From the IMG/VR virus record IMGVR_UViG_3300044695_004869: a stretch of DNA of 64,000 nt, one strand, 5' to 3'. Made by a program: the position numbers and the translations under genes. Every line of letters begins with the position of its first letter. Positions within the stretch are counted from its first letter, which is position 1. This stretch comes from a virus. Its lineage: Duplodnaviria; Caudoviricetes. The notes under the pieces are model-generated. The model saw only the letters and a program-made list of their open reading frames with translations. It did no database searches and was not told the origin of the DNA. Positions 16,522-32,436 of the stretch are shown piece after piece.

Positions 16522-17736
16522 ATGACAAAAATTAATGTATTAGTTCTCCCAAGTGACAAATCTGGTGTAGGAAAGTTTAGGTCAGTTGACCCCCATGTTA
16601 TGTTACAAAATATGTATCCTGAAGATTTTCATATAGACATTGACTACGAACCAAAAGTTATGGATCAAAACTATTGGAAAAAATATCAAATTGTACACGT
16701 ACATAGAAATATTGGGCAGACGTATGAAGAGACACCAAAATTGATTGAGTGGTTAAAATCAAATGGTATTATAGTAATTGTTGATATTGATGATTATTGG
16801 TTACCGACAAAAGAACACCCAATACACCAATTAATTATACAAAATAAAATTCATCAAAAAATTATGGATAATTTAAAGGTTGCATCTTATGTTACAACTA
16901 CAACTAAATTATTTGCAGATGAGATTAGAAAATATAATAAAAATGTTGAGGTATTTGCTAACGCCATTAACCCGAAAGATCCACAGTTCAATGAACAAAC
17001 ATTATCATCTGACAAAATAAGAGTTGGTTGGTTAGGTGGGTCATCTCACCTTCACGATTTAAAATTGATGAGTGGGTTTGTTTCAAAATTATCTCCACTA
17101 CAAGATAAATTACAATATTATGTTTGTGGTTTTGATACAAGAGGTACGGTTACGGAAATTAATAAGGAAACAGGTCAACAGACACAAAGAGCAATTAAAC
17201 CTGAGGAAACTGTTTGGGCAAGATATGAAGAAATTTTCACCGACAATTATAAAATTGTAACACCAAAATATAAGGAATTCTTAAGTAAGTTTGAAGAAAA
17301 AGAATTTTTTGGGTGGGAAAATGAAAACTATGTAAGAGTATGGACAAGACCTGTTACAACTTACGCAAAAAACTACGCTAAATTTGATATCTCATTGGCC
17401 CCAATCCAAAACCACATATTCAATAGAATGAAATCTCAATTAAAAGTTATTGAGGCAGGATTCTATAAGAAAGCATTAATTGCTTCTAATGTGGGTCCAT
17501 ATACGATTGATTTGAAACACGCATTACACCAAGGTCAATTTACGGATGGAAATGCATTATTAGTAAATGAATCAAACAACCATAGTGATTGGGCAAAAAA
17601 TATAAAAAAATTAGTAGAAAACCCAAGTATGATAGTTGATTTGGGTGAACGATTATATGAAACAGTTAAAGATAGATACGATCTTAATAACGTAACAAAA
17701 GAAAGAGCAGAATTTTACAAATCCTTAATTAAATAA
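16522..17736 (+). CDS. GT-B (GT4-like) glycosyltransferase
   Basis: VIVDIDDYW, VRVGWLGGSSHLHDL, FDISLAPI..HIFNRMKSQLKVIEAG...LIASNVGPY. Start moved to ATG 16522. Confidence 0.8.
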   Translation: MTKINVLVLPSDKSGVGKFRSVDPHVMLQNMYPEDFHIDIDYEPKVMDQNYWKKYQIVHVHRNIGQTYEETPKLIEWLKSNGIIVIVDIDDYWLPTKEHPIHQLIIQNKIHQKIMDNLKVASYVTTTTKLFADEIRKYNKNVEVFANAINPKDPQFNEQTLSSDKIRVGWLGGSSHLHDLKLMSGFVSKLSPLQDKLQYYVCGFDTRGTVTEINKETGQQTQRAIKPEETVWARYEEIFTDNYKIVTPKYKEFLSKFEEKEFFGWENENYVRVWTRPVTTYAKNYAKFDISLAPIQNHIFNRMKSQLKVIEAGFYKKALIASNVGPYTIDLKHALHQGQFTDGNALLVNESNNHSDWAKNIKKLVENPSMIVDLGERLYETVKDRYDLNNVTKERAEFYKSLIK

Positions 17737-17739
17737 AAA

Positions 17740-18459
17740 ATGATTAACGTACCAATTACAAAAATTTTATTCCTTGATATTGAAACAGTTGGAATATCAA
17801 AAGATTATGACACTTGTGTAAAAGAATATCCAAGATTAGGTGAACAATTTGACAAATACTTTGATTGGTTCTTAAAAAGATTTCCGGAAGACCAATTGAT
17901 TGGTAAGAATGAAAACGAAAGAAAGAATTTAATCTTCTCAACAAGAACCGCATTGGTCCCTGAATTTGCTAAAATTGTTTGTGTGAGTGTTGCTTTCGTA
18001 ACAGATAAGAATGAAGTTAAAAAACAAACATTCTCAAACGATAATGAAGAAACACTTTTAAGTGAACTTCAAACATTGTTAAATCGTTGTGGTAAATTAG
18101 ATTTCCATTTATGTGGTCATAACTTAAAGAATTTTGATATTCCAATGATTGCTAAACGTATGATTATTAATGGATTAAAACCATCATCAATTTTACCATC
18201 ATATGATACTAAACCTTGGGAGATCAAAGCAATTGATACTAAAGATGTTTGGCAATATGGTGCATATACCGCAATCGGATCATTGGACTTAATGTGTTCG
18301 GCGTTAGATATTCCAACACCAAAAGGTGGGGAAGTAACGGGAGATAAAGTTCATGATTGTTATTGGAACAAAGGTATGTTAAAAGAAATTGGGGAATACT
18401 GTGAACGAGATGTTGAGGTTCTGATTGATGCAATCATAAAATTAAAACAATTAAAATAA
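17740..18459 (+). CDS. 3'-5' exonuclease (PolB-exo-like, DnaQ superfamily)
   Basis: LFLDIET (ExoI), CGHNLKNFDIP (ExoII), YCERDV (ExoIII). Confidence 0.85.
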   Translation: MINVPITKILFLDIETVGISKDYDTCVKEYPRLGEQFDKYFDWFLKRFPEDQLIGKNENERKNLIFSTRTALVPEFAKIVCVSVAFVTDKNEVKKQTFSNDNEETLLSELQTLLNRCGKLDFHLCGHNLKNFDIPMIAKRMIINGLKPSSILPSYDTKPWEIKAIDTKDVWQYGAYTAIGSLDLMCSALDIPTPKGGEVTGDKVHDCYWNKGMLKEIGEYCERDVEVLIDAIIKLKQLK

Positions 18460-19067
18460 TGAACGATAATAAAGTTGATGAGTTTGAGGAAATGCTCAAA
18501 CGAGTTAGTACTCTTGAGGCAGCGTTAGATGATGATGGTGAAATAGAAATTGATTATGATTCCATAATCCAAGAATTTGGTTTAGATGTTGAGGAATTGG
18601 AAAGAGCAATGGAATCCATGCAACCCACAATTAAATTACATTATAGTAAATCTAATTCAGGATCAACATCCCCATCATACGCATACCAAACAGATTCGGG
18701 AATGGATTTATTTTCTACCGAATCAATCACATTAAAACCTTTTGGTAGAGGTTTGATCCCAACGGGAATACATTTTGATATACCTGAAAATTATGAAATA
18801 CAAGTTAGATCAAAAAGTGGTTTGGCATTAAATCAAGGATTGATGGTTTTAAATTCTCCCGGCACTGTAGATCAAGGATATACTGGTGAAATAAAAGTTA
18901 TAATGTTTAACACGACTAGTAATCCCGTAGAAATTAAACAAGGTCAGAAAATTGCTCAAGCAGTTATGACACCTGTAGTTTGTGGTAAATGGATTGAATT
19001 AACTGAAGTGGATAATGTTACCTCGAAAGATAGAGAGGATAAAGGGTTTGGAAGTACAGGAATATGA
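18459..19067 (+). CDS. dut: dUTPase (trimeric) with acidic N-terminal extension
   Basis: DSGMDL, RSKSGLA, PGTVDQGYTGEI, KIAQAV, REDKGFGSTG motifs. Confidence 0.93.
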   Translation: MNDNKVDEFEEMLKRVSTLEAALDDDGEIEIDYDSIIQEFGLDVEELERAMESMQPTIKLHYSKSNSGSTSPSYAYQTDSGMDLFSTESITLKPFGRGLIPTGIHFDIPENYEIQVRSKSGLALNQGLMVLNSPGTVDQGYTGEIKVIMFNTTSNPVEIKQGQKIAQAVMTPVVCGKWIELTEVDNVTSKDREDKGFGSTGI

Positions 19068-30562: not shown

Positions 30563-30566
30563 ATAT

Positions 30567-31628
30567 ATGAATCAAGAACAAATATCAAAGTTAGAGAGGT
30601 CAATCCAAAATATGAAGGATAAAACCTCAAGAATTTATTTTGTGGTACAAGATACCAAAGGTAATGCAAGAGCATCCATTAGATACATTTATCAAATGGC
30701 AATGGCTCTTAAAACAGACGGATACAACCCGATCATCTTACATGAAAAACCTGAATACTTTGGTGTGTCAGATTGGTTAGGAGATACCTATATGACAGAA
30801 TTACCACATAAAGCAATTGAGGGAAGTAACTTAGAAATTTCACCTGACGATCTAATTGTCATTCCTGAAATTTTTGGTTTTGTTATGGACCAAATTACTA
30901 AATTACCTTGTGGTAAAGTTGTGTTGTGTCAAGCTTATGATCACATATTTGAAACATTACAACCTGGTCAAACATGGTCTCAATTAGGTTTCTTTAAATG
31001 TATTACAACTTCTGAAAAACAAAAAGAATATGTTGGGTCAGTTATGAGAAACATCTCATCTAGTGTAATTACACCTGTTATTTCAGATGTGTTTAAAAAA
31101 CAAGAATTCCCACCAAAAACAATTATTTCAATTCACACTAGAGAACATAGAGATACTGTTAATTTAATTAAAACATTTTATTCAAAATTCCCACAATATA
31201 GATGGATTACATTCCGTGATATGAGAGGTTTATCTGAAAGTGAATTTGCAAACGCAATGAATGAAAGTTTTGTATCAGTTTGGGTAGATCAAACAAGTGG
31301 ATTTGGAACATATCCATTGGAATCAATGAAAATGGGAATTCCTGTAATTGGTTTGGTCCCTAATTTAGTACCAGAATGGATGAACGAAGATAATGGTATT
31401 TGGATTAATAACCCTAATATGTTGACTGATGTTATTGCGGACGTTGTTCAAAATTGGTTAGAGGATAATTTAAATCCAGCATTATATACCGAAATGGAAA
31501 AAACAATTTCTAATTACACTGATTTAACAAAATTCAATGAAGAAGTTATTAAAACATTTAGTGACATGATAAACACTCGTCTTGAAAATTTTGAAGACCA
31601 ATTATCTAAATTTATAACAATAGAATAA
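30567..31628 (+). CDS. GT-B (GT4-like) glycosyltransferase
   Basis: LIVIPEIFG...SGFGTYPLESMKMGIPVIG. Confidence 0.72.
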   Translation: MNQEQISKLERSIQNMKDKTSRIYFVVQDTKGNARASIRYIYQMAMALKTDGYNPIILHEKPEYFGVSDWLGDTYMTELPHKAIEGSNLEISPDDLIVIPEIFGFVMDQITKLPCGKVVLCQAYDHIFETLQPGQTWSQLGFFKCITTSEKQKEYVGSVMRNISSSVITPVISDVFKKQEFPPKTIISIHTREHRDTVNLIKTFYSKFPQYRWITFRDMRGLSESEFANAMNESFVSVWVDQTSGFGTYPLESMKMGIPVIGLVPNLVPEWMNEDNGIWINNPNMLTDVIADVVQNWLEDNLNPALYTEMEKTISNYTDLTKFNEEVIKTFSDMINTRLENFEDQLSKFITIE

Positions 31629-31629
31629 T

Positions 31630-32436
31630 ATGAAAAATAAAAACACAATCTCAGTAATTTTACCAATTAAATCAGCGGTGTCTGGTTTCTTTGAGGAATA
31701 TTTAAATAAAGCAATTGAATCTATTAAAGTACAAAAAGAACAATTTGATGAATTAATTATCGTACACACAGATGAAAATTTATTAACTAAAGTTTTAAAA
31801 GATTTTGACTTTGGTGACTTAAATGTTAAATTAGAATCTTGGACAAAAGAAGCAAATTTTGCAGATCAGATTAATCATGGTGTTAGTTTGGCAACATCTA
31901 ATTGGATTACTATTTTTGAATTTGATGATGAATATGCAAACATTTGGGTTAAAAATGTTAAAAACTATATGGACATCTATCCAAATGTTGGGGCATTTTT
32001 ACCTATTGTTGTTGATGTTGACGACAAAGGTGTATTTGTTGGATTCACAAATGAAGCCACTTTTGCGGCTAATATTTCTGAAGAAATGGGGGTATTAACA
32101 AACGAAACATTACACACATATCAAAATTTCCAAATTGCGGGAATGGTAATTAGAAAAGATCTTTTTGTGGAATATGGAATGATTAAAAGTAATTTTAAAT
32201 TAACATTTGGTTATGAATTTTTATTAAGAATGACTCAAAATTCAGTTAAATTTATGACAGTACCAAAAATTGGTTATAAACACAGTAACTTACGTGAAGG
32301 ATCTATTTTTTGGAATTATAAAAATGGGGAAGATCGTCTTTCCGAAGATGAAGTTAAGTTTTGGATAGATTCGGCCAAAAAGGAGTATTTCTTTAATACT
32401 CAAAGAGAAATAAATTACGAACCCCAAGAAATTTAA
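31630..32436 (+). CDS. GT2 family glycosyltransferase
   Basis: ISVILPI...ITIFEFDDEY...YEFLLR. Confidence 0.72.
   Translation: MKNKNTISVILPIKSAVSGFFEEYLNKAIESIKVQKEQFDELIIVHTDENLLTKVLKDFDFGDLNVKLESWTKEANFADQINHGVSLATSNWITIFEFDDEYANIWVKNVKNYMDIYPNVGAFLPIVVDVDDKGVFVGFTNEATFAANISEEMGVLTNETLHTYQNFQIAGMVIRKDLFVEYGMIKSNFKLTFGYEFLLRMTQNSVKFMTVPKIGYKHSNLREGSIFWNYKNGEDRLSEDEVKFWIDSAKKEYFFNTQREINYEPQEI

Follow-up and report, generated by a model that had tools for sequence, protein, structure and literature searches.

The phage from which the window derives (the whole 64,000-nt stretch of DNA that was analysed) is a jumbo freshwater phage in which a 16.7-kb gene run encodes soluble enzymes for making rare sugars and linking them into a glycan. 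The analysis supports the view that this run is a phage-encoded glycan factory, wholly soluble and cytoplasmic. Glycosylation of the phage's own virion proteins, of which the candidate acceptors are described below, is the best reading of the run, and we give it a probability of about 0.5.

The run is tightly packed and occupies positions 16522-33182, with all its genes on the + strand. The ORFs between 16522 and 32436 adjoin one another, overlapping by 1-32 nt or separated by no more than 20 nt, and the run extends past 32436 to 33182, where it ends in a probable late sigma gene. An earlier note on this DNA had reported about ten glycosyltransferases (GTs) from six families together with NDP-sugar enzymes in tightly overlapping genes, and this description was borne out by nine GT genes with ten GT domains: three GT2, two GT-B/GT4-like, and one each of GT25, GT11, GT10 and a GT23-like fold. 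The NDP-sugar enzymes comprise a GDP-mannose 4,6-dehydratase (Gmd), a ColD-type 3-dehydratase, an Fcl/ColC-type synthase, a DegT aminotransferase, and a VioB-like acetyltransferase.

Gmd (27944-28915; PF16363, 7e-119), which anchors the conserved frame described below, scored 402.8 bits against TIGR01472, slightly below the cut-off of 415; of 593 related IMG/VR stretches, the 80 best had a Gmd that was 80-91% identical to it. The product of 26019-27179, a PMP-dependent GDP-4-keto-6-deoxymannose 3-dehydratase of the ColD type, was nearer to ColD/WbdK (PDB 2gms, 1.9e-57) than to perosamine synthase (4e-26), and a His-His aligned with that of ColD was retained where the Schiff-base Lys would be. 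The adjacent gene (25124-26035) encodes a GDP-4-keto-6-deoxyhexose 3,5-epimerase/4-reductase of the Fcl/ColC family, which matched GDP-L-fucose synthase (PDB 4b8w, 3.7e-53) and NF047922 (1.7e-60; 205 bits, below the cut-off of 500). In the relatives, the Fcl/ColC type (at least 60% identical) co-occurred with the ColD type (at least 73%), the sole exception being L011. Two further enzymes belong to the variable cassette. The DegT-family NDP-keto-sugar aminotransferase (21766-22917; PF01041, 7.8e-75) had ArnB-type proteins as its best solved relatives (1.1e-43). The NeuD/PglB/VioB-family amino-sugar N-acetyltransferase (22919-23560) matched TIGR03570 (3.6e-36; 124.6 bits, below the cut-off of 160.8) and VioB (PDB 7txp, 3.6e-22). 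Gmd would convert host GDP-mannose to GDP-4-keto-6-deoxymannose, from which the ColD-type and Fcl/ColC-type enzymes would form GDP-L-colitose and possibly also GDP-L-fucose, and the DegT and VioB-like enzymes would yield an N-acetylated amino-deoxy sugar.

The nine soluble GTs would then build a strain-specific oligosaccharide, of which we infer the exact sugars and the order of transfer. Four of them are conserved clade-wide. The first, a GT-B (GT4-like) protein (16522-17736), was 64-79% identical across relatives and matched phrog_7162, glycosyltransferase (1.5e-42), with a Pfam hit to Glyco_trans_1_4 below the cut-off (5.5e-5). A two-domain GT (19064-20455; Glyco_tranf_2_5, PF13712, 9.1e-29, and GT2, PF00535, 2.4e-33) lies at the edge of the conserved frame. 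The other two, a GT-B (30567-31628) and a GT2 (31630-32436; PF00535, 2.1e-10), were each found in 63 of the 80 loci; the Pfam match of the former was weak and below the cut-off (2.6e-4), and a profile of 26 of its homologues matched the 'putative glycosyltransferase' PDB 8xsg (2.9e-14). The remaining five belong to the swappable cassette, and three of these are of a fucosyltransferase-type family or fold. They are a GT25 (20442-21071; PF01755, 4.9e-9; in 9 of the 80 loci), a GT2 (21056-21769; PF00535, 3.6e-13), a GT11 of the alpha-1,2-fucosyltransferase family (23560-24342; PF01531, 8.4e-30), a GT10 of the alpha-1,3/4-fucosyltransferase family (24339-25127; PF00852, 2.5e-10), and the product of 27163-27942. 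The last, which has no Pfam match, is newly recognised here as GT23-like: after an Atlas lead, an AF2 model with a pLDDT of 94.1 showed the FUT8/NodZ/POFUT fucosyltransferase fold, the motif HRRxTD was invariant among 40 homologues, and Foldseek matched the model to FUT8 (5.6e-8), followed by NodZ, AtFUT1, and POFUT1/2.

The island consists of a conserved frame and a swappable cassette. In the 80 IMG/VR relatives, for each of which 10 kb upstream was fetched, the flanks were conserved and the middle 2-8 kb was exchanged for other enzyme sets. The frame genes downstream of Gmd were present in 53-66 of the 80 loci, and the upstream-flank genes GT4a and GT2x2 fell within the fetched 10 kb in 17 and 20 of them, respectively. 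The 730 upstream ORFs formed 336 clusters, mostly GT2, GT11, GT10, epimerases, FkbM methyltransferases, and DegT. Genes unrelated to glycans are interleaved in the frame, namely a PolB-exo2-type 3'-5' exonuclease (17740-18459; PF10108, 2.9e-14), a dUTPase (18459-19067; PF00692, 3.1e-25), a PhoH-like ATPase (28929-29666; PF02562, 3.4e-63), and two conserved ORFs (29647-30562; in 62-64 of the 80 loci) known from Atlas features only, a 217-aa NT5C/HAD-like lead and a 91-aa ORF. The gene that closes the run (32436-33182) probably encodes a T4 gp55-like late sigma factor, judging from three leads that are each weak but agree: Atlas clusters labelled sigma factor (0.99), phrog_234 late sigma (E 0.005), and a profile match to gp55 (PDB 7d7c, E 0.9) covering the same region. 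A compact captured island was ruled out by the conserved frame with its swappable cassette and by the interleaved exonuclease, dUTPase, PhoH, NT5C-like, and probable sigma genes.

The earlier note had also placed a host-type promoter before the island. The promoter-like element TTGATA-N17-TATATT (16471-16499, + strand) lies 23 nt upstream of the first island gene, behind a terminator-like hairpin (CCCC...GGGG) with a T-run (16432-16460, + strand) that is 3' of gene 15814-16407; a better-formed GC hairpin with a T-run was present at the equivalent place in relatives. Within the window the element was not above chance (133 promoter-like sites versus 139 in shuffles); however, both of its boxes were conserved in position behind the hairpin in seven relatives, with a variable spacer. 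The element was rare elsewhere, with 5 occurrences in the window and 23 in the 321-kb relative G001. The late-type motif TATTTAT occurred within 40 nt upstream of 15 structural or late gene starts in the window and preceded 97 of the 343 genes of G001. It preceded none of the island genes and was absent from the promoter-like element; the first one past the island (33192-33198, + strand) is 11 nt before gene 33203. Because the late motif of the structural genes is absent from the island, the island is not co-regulated with the virion genes. Since it also lies among early/middle-type genes (exonuclease, dUTPase, PhoH), its expression probably precedes that of the late genes, apparently from a conserved promoter of the island's own. 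The lack of the late motif and the early/middle-type neighbours were counted against virion-protein glycosylation.

The Thr-rich neighbours named in the earlier note were recovered on the - strand. Two late genes, both with the late motif upstream, encode large proteins with (TPTxT)n tracts, one of 1265 aa with two LamG domains (5277-9074) and one of 1429 aa (9109-13398), and both are candidate acceptors. The third neighbour (3-4901), of which the N-terminal 1633 aa lie in the window, is a collagen-like (G-T-N/S/D)n protein (PF01391, 1.6e-198) and a lineage-specific candidate acceptor. No collagen repeat was found in the three complete relatives that retain the island frame, so that collagen is not a conserved acceptor; this was likewise counted against virion-protein glycosylation. 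Pro-Thr (PT)-tract proteins, in contrast, are a clade-wide feature. G001 has 14, of which seven form a block adjoining its island, and a homologue of the PT-tract protein (52% identical) likewise adjoins the island there. Protein O-glycosylation is plausible because the GT60 of the clade, a polypeptide GlcNAc-transferase (PF11397), sits directly behind such late genes. GT60 was present in all three complete relatives and in none of 14 control genomes. In 39 of 55 distinct loci, the gene immediately before GT60 was PT-rich, compared with 15% of all ORFs in these loci; the loci come from related phages and are not independent observations. In the genome of this window, a GT60-like stretch lies 17.4 kb before the window start. 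The cassette behind GT60 carries GT10 fucosyltransferases, and no Gmd or Fcl of the GDP-fucose pathway was seen there among the 25 Pfam families listed out of 33; the only Gmd and Fcl-type genes located in these phages are those in the island.

The reported lack of a flippase, Wzy, or ligase was confirmed and extended. No priming phosphoglycosyl transferase, flippase, polymerase, or ligase was found in the window, and among the 730 cassette ORFs of the 80 loci no polytopic membrane protein was as large as a flippase, polymerase, or ligase; the only multi-segment ORFs there were four of 113-141 aa (3-4 segments) and one of 326 aa (2 segments). The Bac_transf, WecA-type, Wzy_C, and Wzx families were absent from the three complete relatives. 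Soluble transfer, which had been deduced from this lack, agrees with the absence of a hydrophobic or membrane segment from every GT of the run; nevertheless, host lipid-carrier machinery could still be used.

This leads to the strongest alternative, host-envelope remodelling, which we regard as possible but less probable. The soluble GTs would act at the cytoplasmic face on host lipid A-core or undecaprenyl-linked intermediates, and the host flippase and ligase or oligosaccharyltransferase would export the altered glycan. The surface of the infected cell would then be changed, so that, for example, superinfection is blocked or progeny are kept off debris. GT25, GT10, GT11, and colitose are classic LPS/LOS hallmarks, and to our knowledge colitose, an O-antigen sugar, occurs only in LPS; this LPS-like mix was counted against virion-protein glycosylation. 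Extension of an LOS-type core requires no phage flippase, and the probable expression before the late genes also favours envelope remodelling. Furthermore, the mix of GT25, GT10, GT11, GT2, and Gmd/Fcl-type genes is shared with large cyanomyoviruses; a Gmd of about 50% identity occurs in P-SSM2, P-SSM5, S-SCSM1, ACG-2014f, and S-CAM7, accompanied in ACG-2014f by a ColD-like gene. The cyanophage version of this mix is usually interpreted as host-surface, cell-wall, or LPS modification (PMC12801897). However, a priming or membrane-associated enzyme was found nowhere in the three complete relatives, and the clade invests in polypeptide-type GTs adjoining its own Thr-rich late genes. Moreover, the hypervariable cassette mirrors hypervariable fibre genes, and a strictly lytic jumbo phage would presumably have little use for a surface change that takes effect slowly.

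It is doubtful that the glycan goes to some other soluble or non-virion target, be it a cytoplasmic protein of the phage or the host, a glycolipid, or a free oligosaccharide (as a decoy or in the modification of an ejected protein). Such a target would suit enzymes that are all soluble and a glycan whose acceptor we infer, but no positive indication of it was found, and it would not account for why polypeptide GTs and PT-tract late genes are paired throughout the clade. DNA hypermodification, in which the GTs would glycosylate hydroxymethyl-pyrimidines of the phage DNA to evade restriction, is highly unlikely. Described DNA glycans are not known to exceed one to a few sugars, and nine GTs, three of them fucosyltransferase-type, with an amino-sugar branch go beyond that size. 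Glycosylation of DNA is common for phage GTs (bioRxiv 10.1101/2023.12.21.572611), and the island genes have a dUTPase and an exonuclease among them; however, the one thymidylate-synthase homologue examined, from the complete relative G001, had true thymidylate synthases as matches (about 1e-77) and no hydroxymethylase in the best 60 matches listed, the Pfam-scanned subset of window ORFs held no C5-methyltransferase or TET/5mYOX-type dioxygenase, and no TET/JBP match was obtained in relatives in a weak search whose control also gave none.

For virion-protein glycosylation, the likeliest acceptors would be the threonines of the (TPTxT)n tracts in the late, fibre-like proteins that the phage itself encodes, with the G-T-X collagen-like fibre as a possible further acceptor in this lineage. 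Priming would be performed by separate polypeptide-directed transferases among the late genes, GT60 and a GT4+GT9-like fusion. The PT tracts could also be unglycosylated linkers. O-glycosylation of mycobacteriophage virions offers a precedent (Freeman 2023, as cited in PMC12619734), and chlorovirus and Mimivirus glycosylate autonomously, with GMD and GMER of their own (PMC5408694, PMC9614988). The lineage of this phage matches the published 'moraphages'.

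The ORFs between 16522 and 33182 are all located on the plus strand, with overlaps of 1-32 nt or a spacing of no more than 20 nt. Clear Pfam matches were obtained for a two-domain GT2_5+GT2 glycosyltransferase (GT) at 19064, a GT25 enzyme at 20442, two GT2 enzymes at 21056 and 31630, a GT11 enzyme at 23560, and a GT10 enzyme at 24339. The two GT-B enzymes starting at 16522 and 30567 scored under the Pfam cut-off; they were confirmed by phrog_7162 (1.5e-42) and by a 26-sequence profile matching PDB 8xsg (2.9e-14). For the ORF at 27163-27942, the family searches were empty and its profile had no match among the PDB sequences, and the fold search alone identified it as a GT23-like enzyme. 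The AlphaFold model of this ORF was built from a 40-sequence alignment, in which an HRRxTD motif was invariant, and had a pLDDT of 94.1; its top solved fold matches were FUT8 and NodZ (GT23), followed by plant FUT1 and POFUT1/2 (best E value of 5.6e-8). The count of about 10 GTs from six families in the earlier note was thus borne out, as nine GT genes with ten GT domains and six families. No hydrophobic segment was found in any protein of the run when the first gene was taken from the ATG at 16522. We consider it close to certain (a probability of about 0.95) that the phage encodes, in this run, a soluble glycan factory whose cassette can be swapped.

The cassette was delimited by mapping the window proteins onto 80 related loci. 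A fixed frame was observed, whose upstream flank consists of GT 16522, an exonuclease, a dUTPase and the two-domain GT, and whose downstream flank consists of the GDP-mannose 4,6-dehydratase gene (gmd), PhoH, two ORFs, GT 30567, GT 31630 and a sigma-like gene, followed by three late-region genes. The middle between the flanks was 2-8 kb in length and different from phage to phage. The 730 ORFs upstream of gmd in the 80 loci fell into 336 clusters at 60% identity, and the Pfam tally of 150 cluster representatives was dominated by GT2, GT11, GT10, epimerases, FkbM and TylF methyltransferases, DegT and GT25. Since the exonuclease, the dUTPase, PhoH, an NT5C-like lead and a 91-aa ORF are interleaved with the island genes, and the frame is fixed around a variable middle, the picture of a compact captured island had to be abandoned.

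Gmd is encoded at 27944 (PF16363 at 7e-119; TIGR01472 at 402.8 bits, which is 12 bits short of its equivalog cut-off). The nearest solved relative of the 26019 product was ColD/WbdK (1.9e-57, compared to 4e-26 for perosamine synthase), and the aligned His-His motif of ColD is retained in place of the usual lysine. The replacement of the Schiff-base Lys by His presumably marks a ColD-type, PMP-dependent GDP-4-keto-6-deoxymannose 3-dehydratase. The 25124 product belongs to the GDP-fucose-synthase (Fcl) family (3.7e-53), and a variant at least 60% identical to it was accompanied in the relatives by a ColD variant of at least 73% identity, with one exception (L011, ColD 32%). As far as sequence can tell, Gmd and ColD of the GDP-L-colitose pathway are therefore present, and the third member is an Fcl-family enzyme for which ColC and Fcl are inseparable by sequence. 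With Gmd, the ColD-type 26019 and the Fcl-family 25124 taken together, GDP-L-colitose, and perhaps GDP-L-fucose, would be the likeliest products of the island; the three fucosyltransferase-type enzymes (GT11, GT10 and GT23-like) are potential users of such donors. DegT 21766 and the VioB/NeuD-family 22919 should give an N-acetylated amino-deoxy sugar. No GDP-mannose supply genes (manB/manC) were seen, and therefore the precursor must come from the host.

The last gene of the island, 32436-33182 (+), probably encodes a late sigma factor resembling T4 gp55, to which three weak but concordant leads pointed (phrog_234 at E 0.005, PDB gp55 at E 0.9, and Atlas 0.99). In the window, 15 gene starts are preceded by the motif TATTTAT at a distance of 11-40 nt, including those of the collagen-like, PT-tract, portal, terminase and protease genes as well as 13449, 33203 and 37285; examples of the sites are 13428, 33192 and 37265 on the plus strand and 4923, 5256, 9093, 13415, 44431, 48957 and 51621 on the minus strand. 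The motif preceded none of the island genes in the window and none of the 18 island genes in the related 321-kb genome G001, in which it precedes 97 of 343 genes, compared to about 6 expected by chance. TATTTAT, with its strong enrichment ahead of late genes, is a candidate late promoter motif. Upstream of 16522, there are a terminator-like hairpin and a TTGATA-N17-TATATT element. For the host-type promoter named in the earlier note, the sigma-70 site count within the window was not above that of the shuffles, but both the TTGATA and TATATT boxes are kept in position in seven relatives, in which the spacer sequence varies, and the element is rare elsewhere. We infer that the island forms a transcription unit of its own, which is on before the late genes and has the probable late sigma gene at its end. 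In a Bacteroidota host, TTGATA-N17-TATATT would not be the usual promoter type. The Bacteroidota-type TAnnTTTG box was not enriched before the window genes (4 occurrences, 3.1 expected) and only about twofold in G001; a copy situated 62 nt ahead of gene 16522 was given no weight.

The window is a piece of a large tailed phage genome, with a T4-like major capsid protein (41044-42924, minus strand; phrog_138 at 3.9e-67) and the prohead protease, portal and large terminase genes on the minus strand. The capsid protein and the terminase are just 25-47% identical to those of any GenBank phage, and the closest GenBank phages are the huge uncultured LR756508 and LR756511, Flavobacterium phage immuto, and Microcystis phage Mel-JY01. 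Against GenBank phages, the island had zero matches by megablast and the conserved GT 30567 had zero matches by tblastn, and no cultured close relative was found. In IMG/VR, Gmd occurred in at least 593 stretches and the capsid protein in at least 597, of which the best 80 shared 80-91% and 77-87% identity, respectively, with the window proteins. Complete relatives with terminal repeats are G001 (321 kb) and G002 (308 kb), and the 294-kb record G003 is 100% complete by CheckV; the genome-wide claims made here are drawn from such related IMG/VR records. An Hc1 histone-like protein was present in 4 of 4 relatives (G001-G004), and DnaK in all three complete ones; in G001, for example, the Hc1 (histone-H1-like) and full-length DnaK genes lie at 169623-169790 and 256493-258274. 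Among the control genomes, Hc1 had matches in Bacteroides only.

The moraphages (Perez-Hernandez et al. 2025) are jumbo phages from freshwater with genomes of 200-307 kb, in some cases ending in direct terminal repeats; their hallmarks are an Hc1 histone-like protein and DnaK, they also share four core glycosyltransferase orthogroups, and Bacteroidota were proposed as their hosts (PMC12619734). Their description merely lists possible GT roles, and the island, the cassette, the sugar pathway and the link between GT60 and PT tracts are absent from it (PMC12619734). Similarly, the relatives of the window are 261-321 kb in size and have Hc1 and DnaK, and the frame of the island contains four GT genes that are conserved; this likeness is one of shared features (size, Hc1, DnaK and four GTs).

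Bac_transf (WbaP) and WecA-type (Glycos_transf_4) priming enzymes had no Pfam match in the window ORFs or in any of five related records, and Wzx (PF01943) and Wzy_C/ligase (PF04932) were absent from the same number of related records, including the three complete genomes. The Bac_transf, WecA-type, Wzy_C and Wzx searches each matched in 9-13 control genomes. Moreover, neither the island nor the 730 cassette ORFs included a polytopic membrane protein in the size range of a flippase, polymerase or ligase. That no flippase, Wzy or ligase is visible, as had been remarked before, was therefore confirmed in the window, the cassette ORFs and the three complete relatives. The island has in common with O-antigen or capsule clusters, whether Wzx/Wzy- or ABC-dependent, just the NDP-sugar genes and several GTs, and it contains no membrane proteins of the kind making up the Gtr seroconversion set (GtrA flippase, GtrB bactoprenol glucosyltransferase and membrane GtrC). 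The 643-aa ORF at 33574-35505 was rejected as a hidden flippase or ligase, as it has few amphipathic or hydrophobic helices (421-520), no family match, and a late motif upstream. Four ORFs of 113-141 aa with 3-4 TM segments were found in the sugar cassettes of more distant Gmd-bearing contigs (L042 3192-3617, L057 406-831, L080 5275-5616 and L076 4062-4403); of the two that were tested, one had a weak holin PHROG match (2e-4) and the other had none.

Two groups of candidate acceptors were considered. The collagen-like gene at 3-4901 (minus strand) was seen in the nearest relative only and is absent from the three complete genomes; it is therefore ruled out as a partner conserved along with the frame, and the earlier proposal that the glycan is built on collagen was not upheld for a general, clade-wide acceptor. 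Its repeats are GTN (167), GTS (143) and GTD (116), with almost no proline (0.7%), and an N-G-T sequon occurs at every GTN-GT junction, so that potential N-glycosylation sites are also densely arrayed along the fibre. The Thr-rich (TPTxT)n repeats, termed PT tracts, are clade-wide and are located in the window at 5277-9074 and 9109-13398. G001 has 14 PT-tract proteins, seven of them in one block adjoining its island. A 416-aa protein of G001 (63077-64327; 3077-4327 of locus L164) matched PF11397 at 8.9e-66, the Pfam family of the cytoplasmic GT60 polypeptide GlcNAc-transferases. GT60 was present in all three complete relatives and in 0 of 14 control genomes. A PT-rich gene lay directly upstream of GT60 on the same strand in 39 of 55 distinct IMG/VR loci, and within two genes in 47, when the PT-rich background in those loci was 15% of ORFs; the pairing is conserved synteny, the 55 loci being related and not independent events. 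The arrangement of GT60 behind PT-tract late genes is seen in L164 and loci L179-L258.

Downstream of GT60, there is a second variable cassette with GT10, FkbM, GT34, GT25, HtrL-like, PLOD-GT and GT31 genes, and no Gmd/Fcl-type families were among the 25 displayed of its 33 matched Pfam families. The fucosyltransferases of this cassette would depend on the host or on the Gmd pathway of the island, the only phage-encoded one located. Hyp-linked GT60 glycosylation would need a prolyl hydroxylase; since PF13640 was absent from the complete relatives, Thr is the likelier GT60 target. For the window itself, a GT60-like stretch was located by the sequence index 17.4 kb before the window start. GT60 homologues of 45-48% identity occur in jumbo phages of Xanthomonas or Stenotrophomonas that are in culture (XacN1, Xoo-sp13 and Stenotrophomonas CM1/RAS14) and are possible experimental models. 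A further gene, about 7 kb before the window start in the 91-98% identical relative G005 (L178 22-2427, plus strand), has an 801-aa, GT4+GT9-like product in which a GT1/GT4 domain (2.1e-11) is combined with a GT9 heptosyltransferase-like one (5.4e-5). This gene is two genes from the collagen-like gene of G005 (3452-10624, minus strand), with a 223-aa ORF between them, and in other relatives its homologues are found at a distance of 4-6 kb from GT60.

Because the absence of lipid-carrier genes, the polypeptide GTs, and the mycobacteriophage and giant-virus precedents fit it, the best-supported candidate target of the island glycan is the phage's own Thr-rich late proteins, to which we give an even chance. 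The main rival is that host lipid-linked or LPS-core glycans are remodelled via the host's own export machinery; the GT families of the island and colitose are typical of LPS, the operon appears not to be late, and the equivalent cyanophage clusters have been interpreted in this way (PMC12801897). We judge this explanation the less likely of the two. Glycosylation of DNA is unlikely, since the thymidylate-synthase homologue of the relative G001 matched true thymidylate synthases (approximately 1e-77), and, judged on this enzyme, the hydroxymethyl-pyrimidine-making activity of DNA-glycosylation systems (T4 alpha/beta-GT; 5mYOX/ThyS-linked) would be lacking, while Tet_JBP, without a match in the three complete relatives, was uninformative as the controls were silent too.

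We tentatively speculate, at less than even odds, that these abundant freshwater jumbo phages wear a mucin-like, strain-variable glycocalyx, giving phage 'serotypes', which is phage-made in two stages. The pre-late operon would supply the GDP-colitose and N-acetyl-amino-deoxyhexose donors and the elongating transferases. The initiating polypeptide transferases (GT60 and the GT4+GT9-like fusion) would then be co-transcribed with their Thr-rich fibre substrates, and hosts, grazers or lectin-like defences would be the selective agents under which the two swappable cassettes diversify the coat.

Large cyanophages have 'LPS / cell-wall' clusters with soluble GT2, GT10, GT11 and GT25 enzymes, Gmd and an epimerase-reductase (PMC12801897). 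The island falls within this definition, as it combines soluble GT2/10/11/25 enzymes, Gmd and an epimerase in a large aquatic tailed phage, and it resembles those of the T4-like cyanophages P-SSM2, P-SSM5, S-SCSM1, S-SCSM2R and ACG-2014f, likewise large, aquatic and myovirus-type. Between the island and these cyanophages, Gmd identity is about 50%, and in ACG-2014f a ColD-like gene adjoins gmd as well. Nevertheless, the window clade is of a different lineage, has a fixed frame and a swappable cassette ending at the late sigma gene, and adds polypeptide-type GTs adjoining PT-tract genes. To our knowledge, the function of the cyanophage 'LPS' clusters has never been shown. The ColD-like gene of ACG-2014f (e.g., KJ019148.1 153105-156165) is 31% identical, annotated as hypothetical and about 1 kb from gmd, and thus cultured cyanophages may also own a 3,6-dideoxyhexose pathway.

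Mycobacteriophage GTs reportedly decorate Ser/Thr-rich stretches of their own structural proteins in the cytoplasm (Freeman et al. 2023); that system is said to comprise one or two GTs without a sugar-nucleotide pathway, the acceptors being C-terminal tails of the capsid and tail tube proteins. In contrast, the window has at least nine GTs together with pathways for rare sugars, and its PT tracts are long, internal parts of fibre-like proteins. As in the Gmd-ColD-ColC set of E. coli O55/O111, Gmd, a ColD homologue with the catalytic His and an Fcl-family reductase adjoin GT11-type transferases, but the Wzx, Wzy, WecA, WaaL and manB/manC of those O-antigen clusters were not found in the island. 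In Bacillus anthracis, the collagen-like G-x-T repeats of BclA are O-glycosylated in the mother-cell cytoplasm, and anthrose is made by an operon with DegT and an acyltransferase. Common to the window and the BclA system are a Thr-rich collagen-like filament, GTs that are soluble, a pathway for a 6-deoxy sugar, and the pairing of an aminotransferase with an acyltransferase (related papers: PMC10050317, PMC7793302). In the phage clade, the collagen gene is lineage-specific, and the likeness to BclA is one of analogy. Giant viruses encode GMD and GMER-type enzymes, an aminotransferase and an acetyltransferase, and soluble cytoplasmic GTs in clade-specific sets (PMC5408694, PMC9614988, PMC4691112). 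Like chlorovirus PBCV-1, Mimivirus and other Megavirinae, the island encodes its own GMD/GMER-type and amino-deoxy-sugar enzymes and, as in virus-autonomous virion glycosylation, soluble GTs. Those viruses are eukaryotic, with glycans chemically proven on capsid or fibrils, whereas the present system has a bacterial host and a proposed PT-tract acceptor.

Glycan gene clusters in large aquatic phages have reportedly been known since P-SSM2 (2005), and we know of no case in which their target was determined. These clusters are thus already known and unexplained, and the lineage was described in 2025 without an analysis of the island (PMC12619734). The window adds the ColD/colitose branch, the GT23-like enzyme identified by fold, the exclusion of the late motif from the island, a promoter that is conserved, and the finding that speaks against collagen as the clade-wide acceptor. 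The clade offers a sharper handle on the question, with its abundance in IMG/VR (hundreds of contigs, the related stretches numbering at least 593), its fixed frame and swappable cassette, complete genomes without lipid-carrier machinery, and, behind the late genes with Pro-Thr tracts, an initiating transferase of the polypeptide type. Should the virion prove to carry the glycan, the phage would be the first bacteriophage to make its own complex coat of rare sugars, comparable to those of giant viruses, with consequences for host recognition, grazing and defence evasion and for how sticky the particles are in lakes. If the glycan is on the host envelope, a lytic phage would reprogram the cell surface on a large scale. 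Either result would settle a 20-year-old question.

Some further features of the window were observed. The major capsid protein is 626 aa in length, and tblastn to known T4-like capsid proteins covers approximately 50% of it in two pieces; the approximately 250 residues without a match may be an insertion or decoration domain. The gene at 57104-59167 (plus strand) encodes a 687-aa ATP-dependent protease (phrog_4871 at 1.1e-235, AAA-type matches), and the intergenic region upstream of it is without the late motif. Furthermore, the gaps of 210-390 nt at 35506-35725, 38749-38961, 40745-41043, 44402-44787 and 46015-46290 look coding, with small ORFs of less than 100 aa.
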